Origin: Octopus vulgaris
Taxonomy: Eukaryota
Assembly: GCA_951406725.2 (NCBI GenBank)
Contig: OX597814.1
Location: 222,890,001 to 222,954,000 of the forward strand
DNA length: 64,000 nt
Reading direction: 5' to 3'
The translations under genes were made by a program, and so were the position numbers. The notes under the pieces are model-generated. The model was given only the letters and a program-made list of their open reading frames with translations, had not been told where the DNA came from and did not search any database. Shown one piece after another: positions 380 through 47,579 of the stretch (its first letter is position 1; each line of letters begins with the position of its first letter).

Positions 380-3150
380 CTATTCTCACACAATACAAAT
401 GCGTAACATGTTCGTATGCATGTAAATAATATGAGTGATTCTGGGCATGTGACGACCAAGAGGGAATTAAAACAAGTAATTGATTGAAAAAATCTAGGAT
501 GTTTTAAATGTACAGATACATTTCTTTGTTTTATAATTTAGTATTTTCTTAAGTGCTTATTCCTATACTTCAGAGGATATCTCCGGAATATATAGCCCAT
601 TTCTTATTTTTAAGAATTTGAAGGAAATTCTGTTGGAATTTTAAAGAAATTCGGATGTTTGGTAATTGGAAATGGGACGTTGTCACCGAGATACATTACT
701 AAAAGTTATCATTGCATAGACGAAACTACCGAACTTGAGACAAAGAACAAAACCTATTCACTGAAGCTAACAGTTGTACCACTTGCAATAGAACACAATT
801 ATTATATACAAAATTTAAAGTTTAGGCAACAACATTGTCCGTAACTACGTTTCGAGCGACTAAAATTTCTAAGAGAATTTAACAGTTCTCGTGTTTTTGA
901 ATGGCTAACAGATGCCTTCCACACTGCAATCGTTTTAGTTTTTAACTCACTTTTCATTCAAAACATTTGCCAACGCAAGTAAATCTTCGATAAAAACAAA
1001 TGAAATTTTTGCGAAATTTCTTAAATTACTTATTTTCCAAGATATGTCTTGTTATTTTTAATGTTTTTATTTCTGTTATTCACAATATTTTTGAGACGAA
1101 AGAAAGAAAGAAAGAAGGAAATACTGATTCGAAACAATATTTGCAGTGTATGACTAAATGATTTGCTGTTCTTAAATACACTACTACGAAAAAAAAAAAC
1201 GTAATAAAAAAGGATATCTACGTCAGTGTTATGATTTATGCAAACTCAGCAAGTTGTAACATGTAACTCCTGTTAGAAGATTTTGAACGCAGGACTGTTC
1301 GTCAACTATATAACCTTATTGTTCTTTACTGCAGTAAAACATACCTATGTAAAGTAATTATATTCAGCAAGGCAGTGTAGGTCATTAATGAACAAGAAGT
1401 TTCTTGCGCATGGATGCAACGCAACGCTGGCCACAGATTATGAACTGCTGGCCTTTTCGCTGCTAGGCCGACACTCTGCGTTGGCATGTGTAGAAGCAAG
1501 CAGCTATATAGGCATTTTGTTTTTTTGTTTTTTGTACCACAGAACGTTTCCAATTTTGAATAGATTTATCATAAATGCCGAGTGAATAATAGTGATATGC
1601 TGTAAAAAAATAATTGATTTATCTTGGCTACAGGAGATACCAGTTTTTGTATGTATAGACAGCAGTAATAGTAGTAGTTTAATATTAGACATTGCTTCGT
1701 TGTTCATTCTAAATTCTCGGATTCTATGTGTGTATCCATACTAAAAACTGAACCTTCACACTACAACGTTTTGCTCTTTTTTTTTTCTTTTAACGACATG
1801 ATTTGCTTCGTACCGATGAAATTCTTGATACTTTGATATTATTTGGAGATCAGAGTCAGTAGAGCGCTGAATTAAATATCTTGGCTATGTCCTGTTATGG
1901 TTTTCAATTCAAATAAATACATTGCTTTACATTACTTAATTATGTTTCTCATTTGAAATCCTGCCATGATAGGCTTTGTTCCTTCAGAAGTCCATAACAT
2001 GATTTTTCTGTTACGATAACACAAATAGATGAACAACACAGGGGGTCAATGAACATTTATAAAATGTCTTTATGATAAGCCGTAACAATTAAAAAGATAG
2101 TTAATTAAAAGAATAATTCATTTAGCCCACAACAATTTCATGAATTTTACCTATACATATTTTGATAACAATTTTAATGAAACATGTCATTTGAACCAGG
2201 AAAAGTAGGGTGTAAAAATATGTGATATTAGTCATCTACCATACACAATAGCAGAAAATATATACTTAGAAATTATGTAGGTATGTATTGGGAATAACTT
2301 AAAGAAAGTGCAGTATTTATGATAAAGTACCAGTATGTATTCGAGTAATGAACTCCTGGATTTTTTCGAAGTCAACCTAAGTAATGGCAAACTTCACAGA
2401 AAGAAGATAGCCTGTATTAAAAATATATTTTAGGGACGTATTTGAAATTTGCTAATATAGTTGCAGTTGTACCAGATGCCAAATCAAAATTGCCCTGAAA
2501 CGCAACAGCTTCCGTTTTAACAACTTTGGATGATTTCGATAAGCTCACCAAGGACACACTAAACATGTTCTTCTATAGAGATGGTGAGAACATTCCTAGA
2601 TTGCGCTACGTAAATGCCTTCAGTGGGAGTTCTAAAACTAATAATGTGTGTGCGTCATGTATATATATATGTTCAAGGTGCATTCAGTTACATATTTCTA
2701 CAGTTCAAATAAGTATACCTTTGGTAATTTGCATTTTTACATCTTTGCTGAAATTTCCTGAAAAAATTGGAAATTCGACGCAGGTTTTTCAATAATATTG
2801 TATTTTGTTTTAATGTAATTATGAATCATATATCCTTATTTACAATCACTAAGTCTGGCATAGCCTTACATTTTTCATGCAATACCAAAGGTCAGATTTC
2901 TTTTGTACGCTAATATATAAAGTGAGATTTGAAGTTTTCTTAGATTAGAAAAACAATACCAAATAGGTATTCTTTGCATATCAATCATATATATCTCTTA
3001 AACATTTTGGAAGAAATCCTAACTTAATCCACTGAAATATCGATTACAAGTATTATGCTAAATCTGAAACGTAACGCTAATATATGCTTTATTACAACTC
3101 TCTATGAAGATGGCGAACTGGCGAAATCATAGAGCGTCGGAAGAAATACC

Positions 3151-3378
3151 TGTTTCTTTACTACCCACAAGGGGCTAAACACAGAGAGGACAAACAAGGA
3201 CAGACAAACGGATTAAGTCGATTATATCGACCCCAGTGCGTAACTGGTACTTAATTTATCGACCCCCAAAAGGATGAAAGGCAAAGTCGACCTCGGCGGA
3301 ATGTGAACTCAGAACGTAACAGCAGACGAAATACCGCAAAGCATTTCGCCTGACGTGTTAACGTTTCTGCCAGCTCGC
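3151..3378 (-). mobile_element. SINE group B, young copy nested in an older plus-strand group B copy (about 3108-3150 plus 3395-3560)
   Basis: Head GGCGAGCTGGCAGAAACGTTA, body GGTCGACTTTGCCTTTCATCCTTTTGGGGGTCGATAAA, tail GGGTAGTAAAGAAACA; 16-bp TSD CGTCGGAAGAAATACC at 3135-3150 and 3379-3394. Confidence 0.9.
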
Positions 3379-5168
3379 CGTCGGAAGAAATACCATTAAA
3401 CATTTCTTCCGGCACTTTACGTTCTGAGTTCAAATGCCCCCAAAGGCAACTTCGTGTTTCATCCTTCAAGGATTGATAAAATATATTACCAGTCAAACCC
3501 TGAGGTTGATGGTCCCGATTAATCAACATTCTCTCAAAATGTTTATAATCCATTACAATTCTATATTCAGATGTAAATTTCATCTTATAAAATTGAAATT
3601 TAAAAAACAATTTTATACAGCGATTAACTTAATCGATTGGGCGTCACCCGGAGAAAACTGGACTGGTGTTTGCAAAACGAAAAATAGATAATATACAGAC
3701 ACGTTAAAATGTGAATTATAGAGTTATATAGTCGAATGAAACATTTTAAAACTAAATTTATATAATTTTCAAACAATGTTTCCTCAAAATAGAATCCAAA
3801 CTAGCTGATTATATGCTAGCAGAATGTCATTGAATCTAGAAGGTCATATGTTAAATATTGCAAACTAAACTCAGTTGAATGTTTCTGCTTAGCATTGCAA
3901 ACAATCAAACAGAACAATACATTCCGATTTTCCGTTAACGATTAAGCACAAGCCATGATATGCAGATTAAGTGTATAATGTTCACATTGAAATATATAAC
4001 TGATGATGCCCAGGTATGTAAGATATAAGGATATCGTATTTTTTTCTTTTCCATTGTGTATGTGTGCGCGCCCATGCGTTGGTGTGGATATACGAATGCA
4101 ACAAACGCTAAATCTATGCAGTAAATGTCATTTCTTCGTTCGAATTTGGCATTTCACTGTATCACCAGTCAGAGCTTGTCGCTAAGGTGTAAAACTTCTT
4201 GACCTCACGACCTCACAAAAAGGTAAAAATTTAAATAATGACAGATTGAGTTATCCGCTATAAACGAATAGAAGATATGAATAATAAATATGATCGGTTC
4301 TTATACAAATTCATATTTAAGTTTCTAACTGTATTTTACTATTATAGTTGTACACTTCTTTGGAACCTACATGTTCGATCACAATGGATTATCAGTGAGC
4401 GCATTATTGCATTAAATTACAGGAATTTTATGTCCCATATATATACATATATACATGCATATGCGTATATGTATATGAGTGTGTATTGGCCATATTTTCG
4501 TTCAAAATGTACACATACAAATAAAAATAAACAAATCCTTTGTCAGTTTCCTTTGTGACCATTCCATTTGTTCAAATAAATGATTTAATTCCTCTGTGCT
4601 TTACCCTTATAACACAGAGGGTATCAAAGGTACGTGTAAGCTTATAGTAGACTCCAGTAAGAATCAACGTAAAAACAAGAACAAATCTGCTCCATTGAAT
4701 TATTCGCACAATTTATCCAACGGTATCCTGAATTTTTCATTCGGTTCAATTTCGCTTGCAAGTTTCGATCTGAGGCTATTGTACCGCAAGAAGCCATGCA
4801 GTTAGCTCCATCTCGTAACTTTATATTCATGGAAGCACTTCTTAACCAGTCGGCCATATATAAATATATCTGTACGTACATTTTCAATACGCATTTATGT
4901 TAGAAATTTGATTAAAAACGCAAAATGACCTATTGACATAAACATTAAGACACGTTCTCATGTGACATCTGGGAACCTTTAGAATATTTTCAATCATATA
5001 GACTAACTATCTTTGATAGAACCCATATGTAGATAATGTATTACATATGAATATATGTTATATAAATATAATATATTCATATTAGTATGAGTGGAAAGAA
5101 ACACACATGATGTACACAAATTTATAGAGACCCATAGTCACGGCGAGAGAGAGAGATGTATATACGAA

Positions 5169-6214: not shown

Positions 6215-6582
6215 GTTAGTGCACCGGACGAAATCCTTAGTGGTATTTCGTCTGCCGCTACGTACTGAGTTCAAATTCCGCTAAGGTCGACTTTGCCTTT
6301 CATCCTTTCGGGGTCGATTAAATAAGTAGCAGTTATGCACTGGGGTCGATATAATCGACTTAATCCGTTTGTCCTTACTGTGTTTAACCCCTTGTGGGTA
6401 GTAAAGAAATAGGTATTTCGTCTGCCGCTACGTTCTGAGTTCAAACTCCGCTGAGGTCGACTTTGCCTTTCGTCCTTTCGGGATCGATAAATTAAATATC
6501 AGTGAAACATCAGGGTAGATGTAATCGACTAGTCCCCTCCCACAAAATTTCACGCTTTATGCCTTTAGTAGAAAGGATTATT
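6215..6582 (+). mobile_element. SINE group B head-to-tail dimer (young-tail copy joined to old-tail copy)
   Basis: Two GGTATTTCGTCTGCCGCTACG...GGTCGACTTTGCCTTT units; junction GTAGTAAAGAAATA|GGTATTTC at about 6411/6412. Confidence 0.9.
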
Positions 6583-12350: not shown

Positions 12351-13072
12351 GATCGTAACAACAATTTCTTTATTGCCCACAGGGGCCAAACACAAAGGGA
12401 CGGTAAAAATGAGGGAGGAGTCGATGGTACGTATGTTTTCTACACAGAGGTGAAAAGTAAAATATATATATATATATATGTAATTAAGCAATTAAGGACA
12501 ACTACTTAATAAGGAAAACTTAACAAGAAATTGTCAGGTAGATAGCGTGAAAACCTCATAAGAGAAAAATTTCGAAAATAATTATTTCTTATTGAACATA
12601 TTAATAAATTAATATGCCCTCTATATATATATATGTATATATATATTGGTCCAGGCCACGTCTAACTTAATAGCACCACCTGATAGGATTATTTGAATCC
12701 TGTTTTAGTCAAGTTTTGTTTATGTTCCATTCAAGTAGTGAGTTTTTGTTGGGTGATATGTATGTATGTATGTAATAGATTTAAATCAGTAATTTGGTCG
12801 TACTTATTCTGAAGACATTGGGAAGATGAAACCGTCCACCACGTGATTTGAACCCTACTGCTACTGTATCGGTTTGTAAATTCACCGTCTTTTTATTATA
12901 ATCGTTAAATCAAAGATGATACAATTAAAAAATAATATTCTATTTTATTGCATTCATCATTTTTCTTTCGTTCTGGACATTTTCTCTAAATTCAATAATT
13001 ACATGTGCGTATATGTGTGTGTAAGTAGGTATGTATATATATATATGTGTGTGTGTGTGTTTGTGTGTGCGT

Positions 13073-32510: not shown

Positions 32511-33134
32511 TATATGTAGATGAACATGTTTATACATGCAACTGTATGCATGAGACTACATACATAAAACAAAACGAACAAATCTGCACATATACATACA
32601 CACATATATGCATAAAACATACACACATATATGCATACATACATACATACATACATACACACACACACATACATACATACATGCATACATGCATACATAC
32701 ATACATACATACATACATACATACATACATACATAGTCTATCGCATCAGAGAAAGACGATTGTTGTGCAATTTCTTGCTGAACAACCAGCATATAATTAG
32801 CTCAGTGTCTCCATCAAATGAACATTAGCCGTACGGGTGCATGGTGCAGCATACACCAGATGTCGAAGTGATCGGAGAGTTGTTTTTCTCAGAACAGACG
32901 CACCACACGGCGGTGCAATATTCTAAATTAATTGATAGAAACTTTAATAGAAAGTTTAGTGTGACAGATTCTTTTCAAATTCAGTTTGATACTATTTACA
33001 CTTCAAATGTTAAAATGATCGGAAACCACTTGGCATCTCTGACTACAAAAATTTTCCACCAAATTTCCTTAGATTTAACAACTACCATCATAAAATAAAA
33101 CAACAAAACATTACATACAGCAGTATGCTTTATA

Positions 33135-33505
33135 TTTCTTTATTGCCTACAGGGGGCTAAACATAGAGGGGAAAAACAAGGACAGACAAACGAATAAAGC
33201 CGATTATATCGGCCCCAGTGCGTAACTGGTACTTATTTCATCGACCCCGAAAGGATGAAAGGCAACGTCGACCTCGGCGGAATTTGAACTCAGAACGTAA
33301 CGGCAGACGAAACACCTATTTCTTTACTACCCACAAGGGACTAAACACAGAGAGGACAAACAAGGACAGACAAACGGATTAAGTCGATTATATCTACCCC
33401 AGTGTGTAACTGGTACTTAATTTATCGACTCAGAACGTAGCGGCAGACGAAATAGGGCTACGCATTTCGACCGGCGTACTAACGTTTCTGCCAGCTCGCC
33501 GCCTT
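33135..33505 (-). mobile_element. SINE group B dimer with outer TSD
   Basis: 21-bp TSD CATACAGCAGTATG(C/T)TTTATA at 33114-33134 and 33506-33526; internal minus-strand junction GTAGTAAAGAAATA|GGTGTTTC at about 33316. Confidence 0.9.
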
Positions 33506-45732: not shown

Positions 45733-45916
45733 CATATATATAGTATATATATATATATAATATATATTGAGAGAATCGCGACCTGTTCAGAGAGAGAGAG
45801 TCCGTGATGCAGCACGGAAATTTGTCAAAAACCCCAAAAAGATGAAGACAAGTATATAAATAACAAGCAAGTGTATTATTTTGACACTAGGGAAAATGAA
45901 CACTCCCACGCTCAAT

Positions 45917-45991: not shown

Positions 45992-46047
<56 letters not shown>

Positions 46048-46708
46048 TGTTTCTTTATTAGCCACACAGGGCTGCACACAGATAGAACAAATTACAAGGT
46101 AGAGCTTTTCTTTCGAAGGTTTAAAAAATAAAAAAAAAAAAAGGAAGGGGGAGTTTCGATCAAAAGGGATCGTAAAAGGAGAGAAAGAGGACAAAAAAAG
46201 GGGGGTTAAAAAAAAGGGGGAGAGAAAAAAAAAAAAAAAATTGATCAATAGGGATCGTTATCACAGAAATGTCAATATGAAGTGTAAAGGGGAGGACAGG
46301 TGAGGTTTACCCGTGGAAAGAAAAGCCTACGGAAAAGACCACGGTAACCTCGGTCAATGGAGTCACATGTTATATTTCTTTTTTTTTTTTTTTGCAAATA
46401 AGCAACTCTCTGTTTTCAATTTCTGGGTTCATAGGATCATGCTCAAGGTGGCTTCGTCATTCATACGTGCCATTCTTGCTACATTCACCCATCTTTTTTA
46501 AAACATTCGCTAGACAAAACTTGCCTCTCTACTCTCACTTTCCTTTTCAAGTGGTACTTGAAGAAGTTGATGAGAGATTGACCAGAGAGAAAAGTGTTTG
46601 TCTCCAATCCTTTCAGATGCGTCCACCAGATACATTCTTTCGCCATAGCCACAAGGATGATGAAAATAGCTCTTCCTTCCCGTTTGAAGGAGGGAGGCGT
46701 GACAATAT

Positions 46709-46710
<2 letters not shown>
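46048..46710 (-). mobile_element. 5'-truncated Tx1/L1-clade LINE (ORF2 C-terminus plus 3' UTR) within (GATA)n
   Basis: NIVTPPSFKREGRAIFIILVAMAKECIWWTHLKG...FFKYHLKRKVRVERQVLSSECF(frameshift)RWVNVARM...IL* ending at 46429, matching the Tx1-type AKxxIW...F..RW terminus; AATAAA near the 3' end; (GATA)n on both sides. Confidence 0.75.
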
Positions 46711-46792
<82 letters not shown>

Positions 46793-46795
46793 GCT

Positions 46796-47579
46796 GAAAT
46801 TTGTCAAAAAAAAAAACGCAAAAGATGAAGACAAGTATATAAATAACAAGCAAGTGTATTATTTTGACACTAGGGAAAATGAAAGTGTAGATTTCAGCGG
46901 TCCAGCGTGGCGAATGTTTGGAAAAACAAGAGGTTGGAAGAAAGGGAGATGATAAAAAAAAGAGGTTGAATGAAAAGGGAGATAATAATAGTGCTAGTGA
47001 TTTCAACAAGAGAAGGTGTTTGTGTGTATTTCAGAATGGTGTGTGTGAGTGTGTAAGTATGTACGTGTGAATAGGGACGAGTGACTCTGACGTATGTGAG
47101 TGTGCTTGTATGTGTGTGCGTGCGTGTGTACGTGTGTGTGTCTGGGACTAAACTGTGTGCATGTGTACGGTCTATGTATGTGAGCGAAAGTTATCTTAGT
47201 CTCTGTATGATACGTGTGTTAAAGCGTGTTGCGTGTGTATATATATATATTGTCTGTGTCCAGGTATTATTTGCTTGTGTGGGTGTGGGAGTGTGCATGA
47301 TGGCGAGTTGAATAGTGTGTGTGGCTGCTCATATAGTGGTGTGTGTGGTGAAGCTATTGAAGATGGTGTATGGGTGTGTGGATGATGGTGTGTAATGTTA
47401 CTGCTGGGAAGTGGTCACTGCTAGTCTGTGTGGAGAGCTGTGGAGTTGGTGTCAAATGAGGAGAGGAAGTGAGATTTGTGTCAGATGAAGGGAGGAGCTG
47501 AATTGAACCCATGTGGCGCAAAGGAGCGAAGACAGAAGATTAACTCCTGTTCACGGTGAGAATCCGGGTTGTCCCTGTG
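46796..47579 (-). mobile_element. Penelope-like element 3' end (GIY-YIG C-terminus plus 3' UTR), partial tandem with 45770-45901
   Basis: 47579-47481 encodes HRDNPDSHREQELIFCLRSFAPHGFNSAPPFI*, matching the PLE terminal E..LI..L....P.GLN motif; the terminal ~85 bp (46796-46883) is directly repeated at 45816-45901. Confidence 0.7.

Follow-up and report, generated by a model that had tools for sequence, protein, structure and literature searches.

A SINE of Octopus vulgaris shares its 3′ tail with a lineage of Tx1-like LINEs, one family of which inserts into the head of the SINE

Mobile elements in the window

The window analyzed here, a stretch of 64,000 nucleotides of Octopus vulgaris DNA (assembly GCA_951406725.2, contig OX597814.1, positions 222,890,001 to 222,954,000), displays a LINE and several SINE copies with a common 3′ tail. 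The LINE is a 5′-truncated, 662-bp copy on the minus strand (46048..46709), ~98% identical to the best genomic copies of what we term family A, and retains ~93 codons from the end of ORF2 (frameshifted near 46500), the 3′ UTR and the terminus. Its tail (46048..46091, minus strand) comprises a small GCC-loop-GGC hairpin, AATAAA and the end AAGAAACA, without poly(A). The copy lies within its target, a (TATC)n microsatellite on the minus strand that is present on both the 3′ side (45992..46047) and the 5′ side (46710..46790) of the LINE. The block of microsatellite and LINE is bracketed by an 88-bp direct repeat (45817-45900 and 46796-46883; 91% identical). A 3′ fragment of family J, which belongs to the same LINE lineage and features the same tail, is found at 12364..12462 (minus strand).

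The SINE, here called SINE B, is represented by a full-length copy (3151..3379, minus strand) with a hairpin head bearing A/B-box-like motifs, a body and a LINE-type tail (3151-3194). It is flanked by a 15-bp target-site duplication (3136..3150 and 3380..3394, plus strand), whose second copy matches the first exactly and whose first copy starts with GGTATTTC on the minus strand, and it splits an older host SINE of opposite orientation (3109..3500, plus strand, ends approximate) at the mirror position of the host's head hairpin. The head of the copy (3285-3383, minus strand) is predicted to fold into a single hairpin of ~30 bp (z = -3.3), with the two recurrent SINE junction sites, 13 and 46, at its base and loop, respectively. 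The A/B-box-like motifs were recognized by eye against the A- and B-box consensus; searches of the head for tRNA or RNA families recovered none with ARAGORN and none of significance in Rfam. Two further loci carry SINE B next to SINE sequence: in a two-unit array (33133..33435, minus strand, upper end approximate), SINE position 46 comes after the tail at 33317, with a second tail 184 bp on, and at 6229..6530 (plus strand, ends approximate) a copy with its tail end at 6411 is followed by GGTATTTC and the remainder of a SINE.

Homology between the SINE tail and the LINE 3′ end

The original prediction on this DNA started from an ungapped terminal match between the LINE tail and the SINE tail, which we could confirm: 36 of 44 positions are identical between 46048-46091 and 3151-3194, the letters were quoted correctly and each segment is a 3′ terminus on the minus strand, in register with the other. 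The best matches of 300 base shuffles of the 44-mer across the whole window ranged from 23 to 29, and within the window at least 31/44 identities are reached only by the LINE and by four SINE tails (3151, 33317, 6411 and 33133). With gaps allowed, the homology extends over ~55 nt. The copy at 3151 is a favorable, best-case match, as the identity of 53 SINE tails (from 60 evenly placed 10-kb genome stretches and the window, a 664-kb sample) to the family-A tail averages 33.1/44, with a maximum of 36. The tail is short and partly A-rich, and might accordingly be seen as a chance match or as a separate SINE fragment abutting the LINE; however, since all 30 fetched family-A copies share this terminus, contiguous with the UTR, it is the LINE's own 3′ end rather than a stray SINE piece, and with shuffles reaching at most 29/44 the probability of this alternative is negligible.

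A conserved stem-loop in the tails, which the prediction had proposed as a check, gained no statistical support. Single-sequence folds of the LINE tail (z = 0.56) and the SINE tail (z = 0.68) are not significant, RNAalifold on 29 tails gave no pairs and no consensus structure, and the GC stem of 3-4 bp that most tails display (pairing of 83.6% in register, against 15-57% after sliding) shows no excess over shuffles. One compensated C/G length change is observed in the tail hairpin between clades.

Family A is a target-specific LINE of the L1 group

A genome search for family A returned 2,232 candidates, of which 40 were scored and 30 copies fetched. TATCT follows the terminus in 30/30 of these. 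Of the 19 5′ junctions in view, 17 passed the TATC score, another narrowly missed it and the last lies outside TATC. The target of family A is (TATC)n, and its copies also form tandem stacks. A full-length element is ~6.1 kb, with an ORF1 of 646 aa and an ORF2 of 1145 aa that combines an Exo_endo_phos domain (APE endonuclease), RVT_1 and a C-terminal zf-RVT zinc knuckle. At the 3′ end, AATAAA and a further 6-8 nt precede the target; a poly(A) tail, which is usual for L1 and Tx1 elements, is absent in all 30 copies.

The ORF2 protein aligns with human L1 ORF2p over residues 4-873 (E = 1.6e-51; vs R2, 2.6e-19), whereas the single control, the RT of one unrelated LINE from the same genome, matches L1 ORF2p in the RT only (3.4e-23). 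By this protein similarity, family A is a member of the L1 group of non-LTR retrotransposons; its nearest named homologue is from Argonauta hians. The homologue searches and one cluster look-up for proteins of the lineage returned no protein named Tx1, so that our label "Tx1-like" denotes L1-group anatomy combined with target specificity; the quick RT tree contains no labelled reference. The lineage displays a Tx1-type trait, in that its families choose specific sequences within repeats or transposons and leave a short duplication of the target. The prediction of a Tx1-type LINE thus held to the extent that the element is L1-group by ORF2 similarity and, as in Tx1, target-specific.

The same tail is common to at least ten related families (working labels include A, E, F, G, H, J, K, M, N and P) that differ in their targets: several families target TATC, G and F target (ATT)n-like repeats, and J, K, M, N and P occupy other sites. 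Besides the window fragment (12364-12462), six other copies of family J are followed by the same sequence; we take this flank, compared by eye, to resemble the start of a Mariner-type transposase gene, like the target of Tx1-Mar. Young family G (ORF2 of 1145 aa), inserted in (ATT)n, is arranged on three contigs in long head-to-tail arrays that repeat every ~5.87 kb. Family K copies cluster within ~200 kb of one contig (C20:44.0-44.2 Mb), all at one target, and this cluster was possibly duplicated along with a host tandem repeat. Young family M (ORF2 of 1132 aa) occupies a fixed site, where an identical short sequence borders either end, and several of its copies lie directly behind the tail of another LINE of the lineage.

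Landing sites of SINE B

A 26-letter pattern of the tail has 97,680 exact matches in the genome. It is followed by GGTATTTC in 29,244 cases (~30%), a count that takes in array-internal junctions and possibly exceeds the independent insertions, by TATCTATC in 75, and by sequences other than GGTATTTC in ~70%. GGTATTTC is found at position 46 within the head of the SINE, where the long hairpin has its loop. In a sample of 60 SINE ends, the next letters are GGTA in 25, AGAA in 14, TATA in 4 and TATC in none, and in a set of 108 SINE tails, site 46 accounts for 40, site 13 for 12, (TA)n for 3 and other locations for 53. Duplications outside SINE heads start with GGT in both copies in 6 of 10 cases, and its presence in both copies indicates that the motif belongs to the target. 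Copies were also found in (TA)n, (CATA)n and (TATC)n. The tail variants sort in part with their flanks, such that those ending in GCAAT precede AGA (6/9) and those ending in GTAGT precede GGT (19/35). SINE units of the same orientation form 184-bp head-to-tail arrays without a separate duplication. Another class of junctions, at position 13 of the SINE (AGAAACG), builds 217-bp arrays (e.g., L101:910-2031); none of the LINE families examined has SINE position 13 as its target.

Family A is very unlikely to set the site preference of the SINE

The original prediction further held that the LINE family of the window explains the site preference of the SINE. Apart from the 36/44 terminal match, this is favored by SINEs embedded in (TATC)n, with repeat units on either side (3 of 12 examined), and by the A-type ending AAACA, which is found in 11 of the 75 TATC-flanked SINEs vs 4.8% overall (p = 0.0009). 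The counts did not support the claim: (TATC)n contains 75 of the 97,680 tails, against 29,244 at GGTATTTC. None of the 30 examined loci (of 47) that combine an A-like GTGGCY tail with GGTATTTC proved to be family A, TATC follows none of 30 AAACA-ending SINEs, the state of the tail hairpin differs from that of the SINE, and the best A copies are far younger (divergence of 1.1% vs 5.5%). By the 75 vs 29,244 counts, the age and the hairpin state, family A is ruled out as the main partner, and that it is the partner that determines the sites of SINE B is very improbable; among the properties expected of a stringent SINE-LINE pair, the two have the 3′ end in common, but neither the site nor the age. 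Nevertheless, given the three-fold enrichment of AAACA among the 75 and the 3/12 copies with TATC on both sides, a small number of SINE copies were probably mobilized by family A or by a sister family that targets TATC.

Family H inserts into the SINE head

A single non-SINE among the 30 examined loci with a LINE-like tail before GGTATTTC (of 47) served as the seed of another family, H. When H loci were collected with a UTR DNA query that excluded the flank, all 30 (including the flank-selected seed) had the SINE site on their 3′ side, and most have ORF2 remnants ~50-55% identical to family A. A protein query placed 25 of 30 loci at the SINE site, four loci being common to the DNA-query set; the other five comprise two without the tail, two with other flanks and one that is ambiguous. 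The host SINEs bear differing tails, so that the flank of H is not simply a fixed end of the LINE. H branches apart from A and G in the quick RT tree, with an RT 64% identical to that of A.

Among 20 older H loci, fetched at 9 kb, all six full-length copies have a 13-14 bp duplication at both ends, four of them behind a SINE head and two behind a SINE tail. The 5′ junction lacks SINE sequence in 12/20 and shows longer SINE sequence in 2/20, both truncated; internal deletions are common. At the loci lacking the 5′ host head, LINE and SINE may have been co-transposed, and we found no convincing duplication around a whole unit of LINE H plus SINE among 15 loci. In the young H copies with the 5′ end in view (one whose 5′ end falls outside the span being left out), the order is host head, duplication and host remainder in 4/4, and two of the four encode an intact ORF2 of 1134 aa. 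The target of family H is accordingly GGTATTTC at position 46 of the SINE head, and its insertion generates a 13-14 bp duplication. The young subfamily H3 was found in four SINE hosts with C instead of G at position 46; CGTA is the next sequence after none of the 60 sampled SINE tails.

Tail, hairpin state, site and age point to subfamilies H1 and H2

The mean match of the family tails to the 53 SINE tails is 37.5 for H2, 37.4 for N, 36.6 for J, 36.3 for K, 35.2 for H1, 34.4 for E, 33.6 for H3, 33.4 for M and 33.1 for A, with shuffled sequences at ~22; the youngest H subfamily (33.6) does not beat A, and the tail match alone does not single out H1 and H2. No LINE with the exact SINE tail is present among the families found, and a pattern joining the upstream letters of family F to the SINE tail has three genome matches, all SINE variants. 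The 4C/3G hairpin of the SINE is the state of the H/M/N/P branch, while A, G and F have 3C/2G. Median divergence is 5.5% for SINE B, 5.4% for H1, 5.0% for H2, 1.1% for A and 0.4% for H3, the SINE sample being unbiased and the LINE samples, taken from the top matches, biased toward young copies. Only H1 and H2 combine tail, site and age with SINE B, and with family H all three properties of a stringent pair (3′ end, site and age) are common. The suggestion that different tail subtypes may use different Tx1 partners survives in spirit, in that a Tx1-like family, H, shares the tail, site and age of the SINE; the original prediction as a whole is partly supported, with the lineage right and the partner wrong.

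A model for the spread of SINE B

We consider it likely that the tail of SINE B was captured from one of the site-specific LINEs of the L1/Tx1 lineage, that family A is an occasional carrier and that family H, for which tail, site and age all agree with the SINE, is the main carrier of the site-46 copies. The mechanism that we propose draws on target-primed reverse transcription and on stringent SINE-LINE pairs. The ORF2 protein of family H would bind the SINE RNA in trans by its tail, nick the strand opposite GGTATTTC and prime reverse transcription there, and the insertion would leave a 13-15 bp duplication. In a SINE host of the same orientation, the new copy would join seamlessly via the homologous head to give the 184-bp head-to-tail arrays. 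The SINE would thereby supply target sites for the very enzyme that spreads it.

Alternatively, the SINE might be a passenger of the whole lineage, with its tail read by many of the families, each dropping it at its own target, and H accounting for the site-46 share only. The presence of the tail in at least ten families, the several SINE flank classes (GGTA 25, AGAA 14 and TATA 4 of 60), the copies in (TA)n, (CATA)n and (TATC)n and the partial tracking of flanks by tail variants (GCAAT with AGA, 6/9; GTAGT with GGT, 19/35) are all consistent with this, but the Mariner-like site of J and the LINE 5′ site of M are absent among the sampled SINE flanks, and the site-13 class is without any LINE found. 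We regard this as a tentative possibility, somewhat short of an even chance, and it is largely compatible with H as the main carrier at site 46.

The site-46 junctions could also arise from events at the RNA level rather than from endonuclease specificity, such as base pairing between the primer and a short GGTA extension on the SINE RNA, array read-through or a template jump at the hairpin of the head. Site 46 indeed coincides with the loop of a long hairpin (z = -3.3), arrays of the same orientation show no separate duplication, two SINE copies have GGT on the 3′ side where the 5′ copy of the duplication differs, and the host head is absent in 12/20 H loci. Such an origin is nevertheless unlikely in view of ten full-length H copies with host sequence on both sides and a duplication, and of the window SINE, which has a 15-bp duplication in a host of opposite orientation.

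Returning to H as the main carrier, an even proposition in our estimate is that this constitutes a self-feeding system, in which a Tx1-like LINE evolved to target the head of a SINE that shares its tail and exploits its enzyme, with one poly(A)-free tail being read across the radiation. If so, each SINE copy would be a new landing site for both LINE and SINE, and the insertion site of a SINE would record which enzyme moved it. The genome offers many related ORF2s (64-80% RT identity to A) that have one conserved RNA tail and different DNA targets, and ~100,000 passenger SINE copies with readable flanks, a combination that separates RNA recognition from target choice. Whether a site is picked by the endonuclease or by the RNA end is thus testable here, which bears on retrotransposon biology and on tools for site-specific insertion. 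A further lesson is that a tail match on its own can point to the wrong partner.

Comparison with known systems

Octopus SINEs derived from tRNAs, with the name OR1, were reportedly described by Ohshima and Okada in 1994 (as cited in PMC4824008 and PMC3531059); they are like SINE B in being abundant and having tRNA-like heads, a likeness at the level of description. A more recent study gives 13 recently active L1-Tx1 families in octopus and leaves most SINE families unclassified in its accessible text (PMC13282606). The accessible portions of four other papers (PMC4758252, PMC10294476, PMC4824008 and PMC3531059) contain no octopus SINE-Tx1 pair, and those of a table of SINE-LINE pairs contain no Tx1-tailed SINE and no mollusc pair (PMC3747384). 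Our search of the literature, as far as its text was accessible, recovered no description of such a LINE-SINE system, although Repbase, Dfam, supplements or subscription papers may hold one.

The stringent pairs of the L1 clade, ZmSINE2-3 with LINE1-1_ZM in maize and sorghum and SINEX-3_CR with L1-1_CR, are comparable to SINE B in that the SINE bears the conserved ~45-nt 3′ end of an L1-clade LINE (PMC3747384); these pairs are plant and algal, and no target specificity is stated for them in the parts of that source available to us. Microsatellite-targeting Tx1 families include Kibi in (TC)n, Koshi in (TTC)n and crocodilian families in (TTCC)n and (TTTC)n (PMC4494074). Family A resembles these in its microsatellite insertion and tandem stacking, but differs in its repeat, (TATC)n, as judged from the published descriptions rather than from reference sequences.

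A parallel in target use is crocodilian Tx1-Mar, which likely mobilizes SINEU, as inferred from their common target (Kojima 2015, PMC4494074). As with SINE B and family H, the SINE and the LINE there insert at a common target within a further transposon, agree in age and display tandem insertions. In the accessible literature, we found no SINE with a Tx1-type tail, and the Tx1-driven SINEU is without a tail in common with its LINE: it ends in poly(A), no LINE with the 3′ end of SINEU-1 is reported in the available text and its target is a Mariner element (PMC4494074). In the octopus, by contrast, SINE and LINE have a poly(A)-free tail in common, and insertion is directed to the head of the SINE itself.
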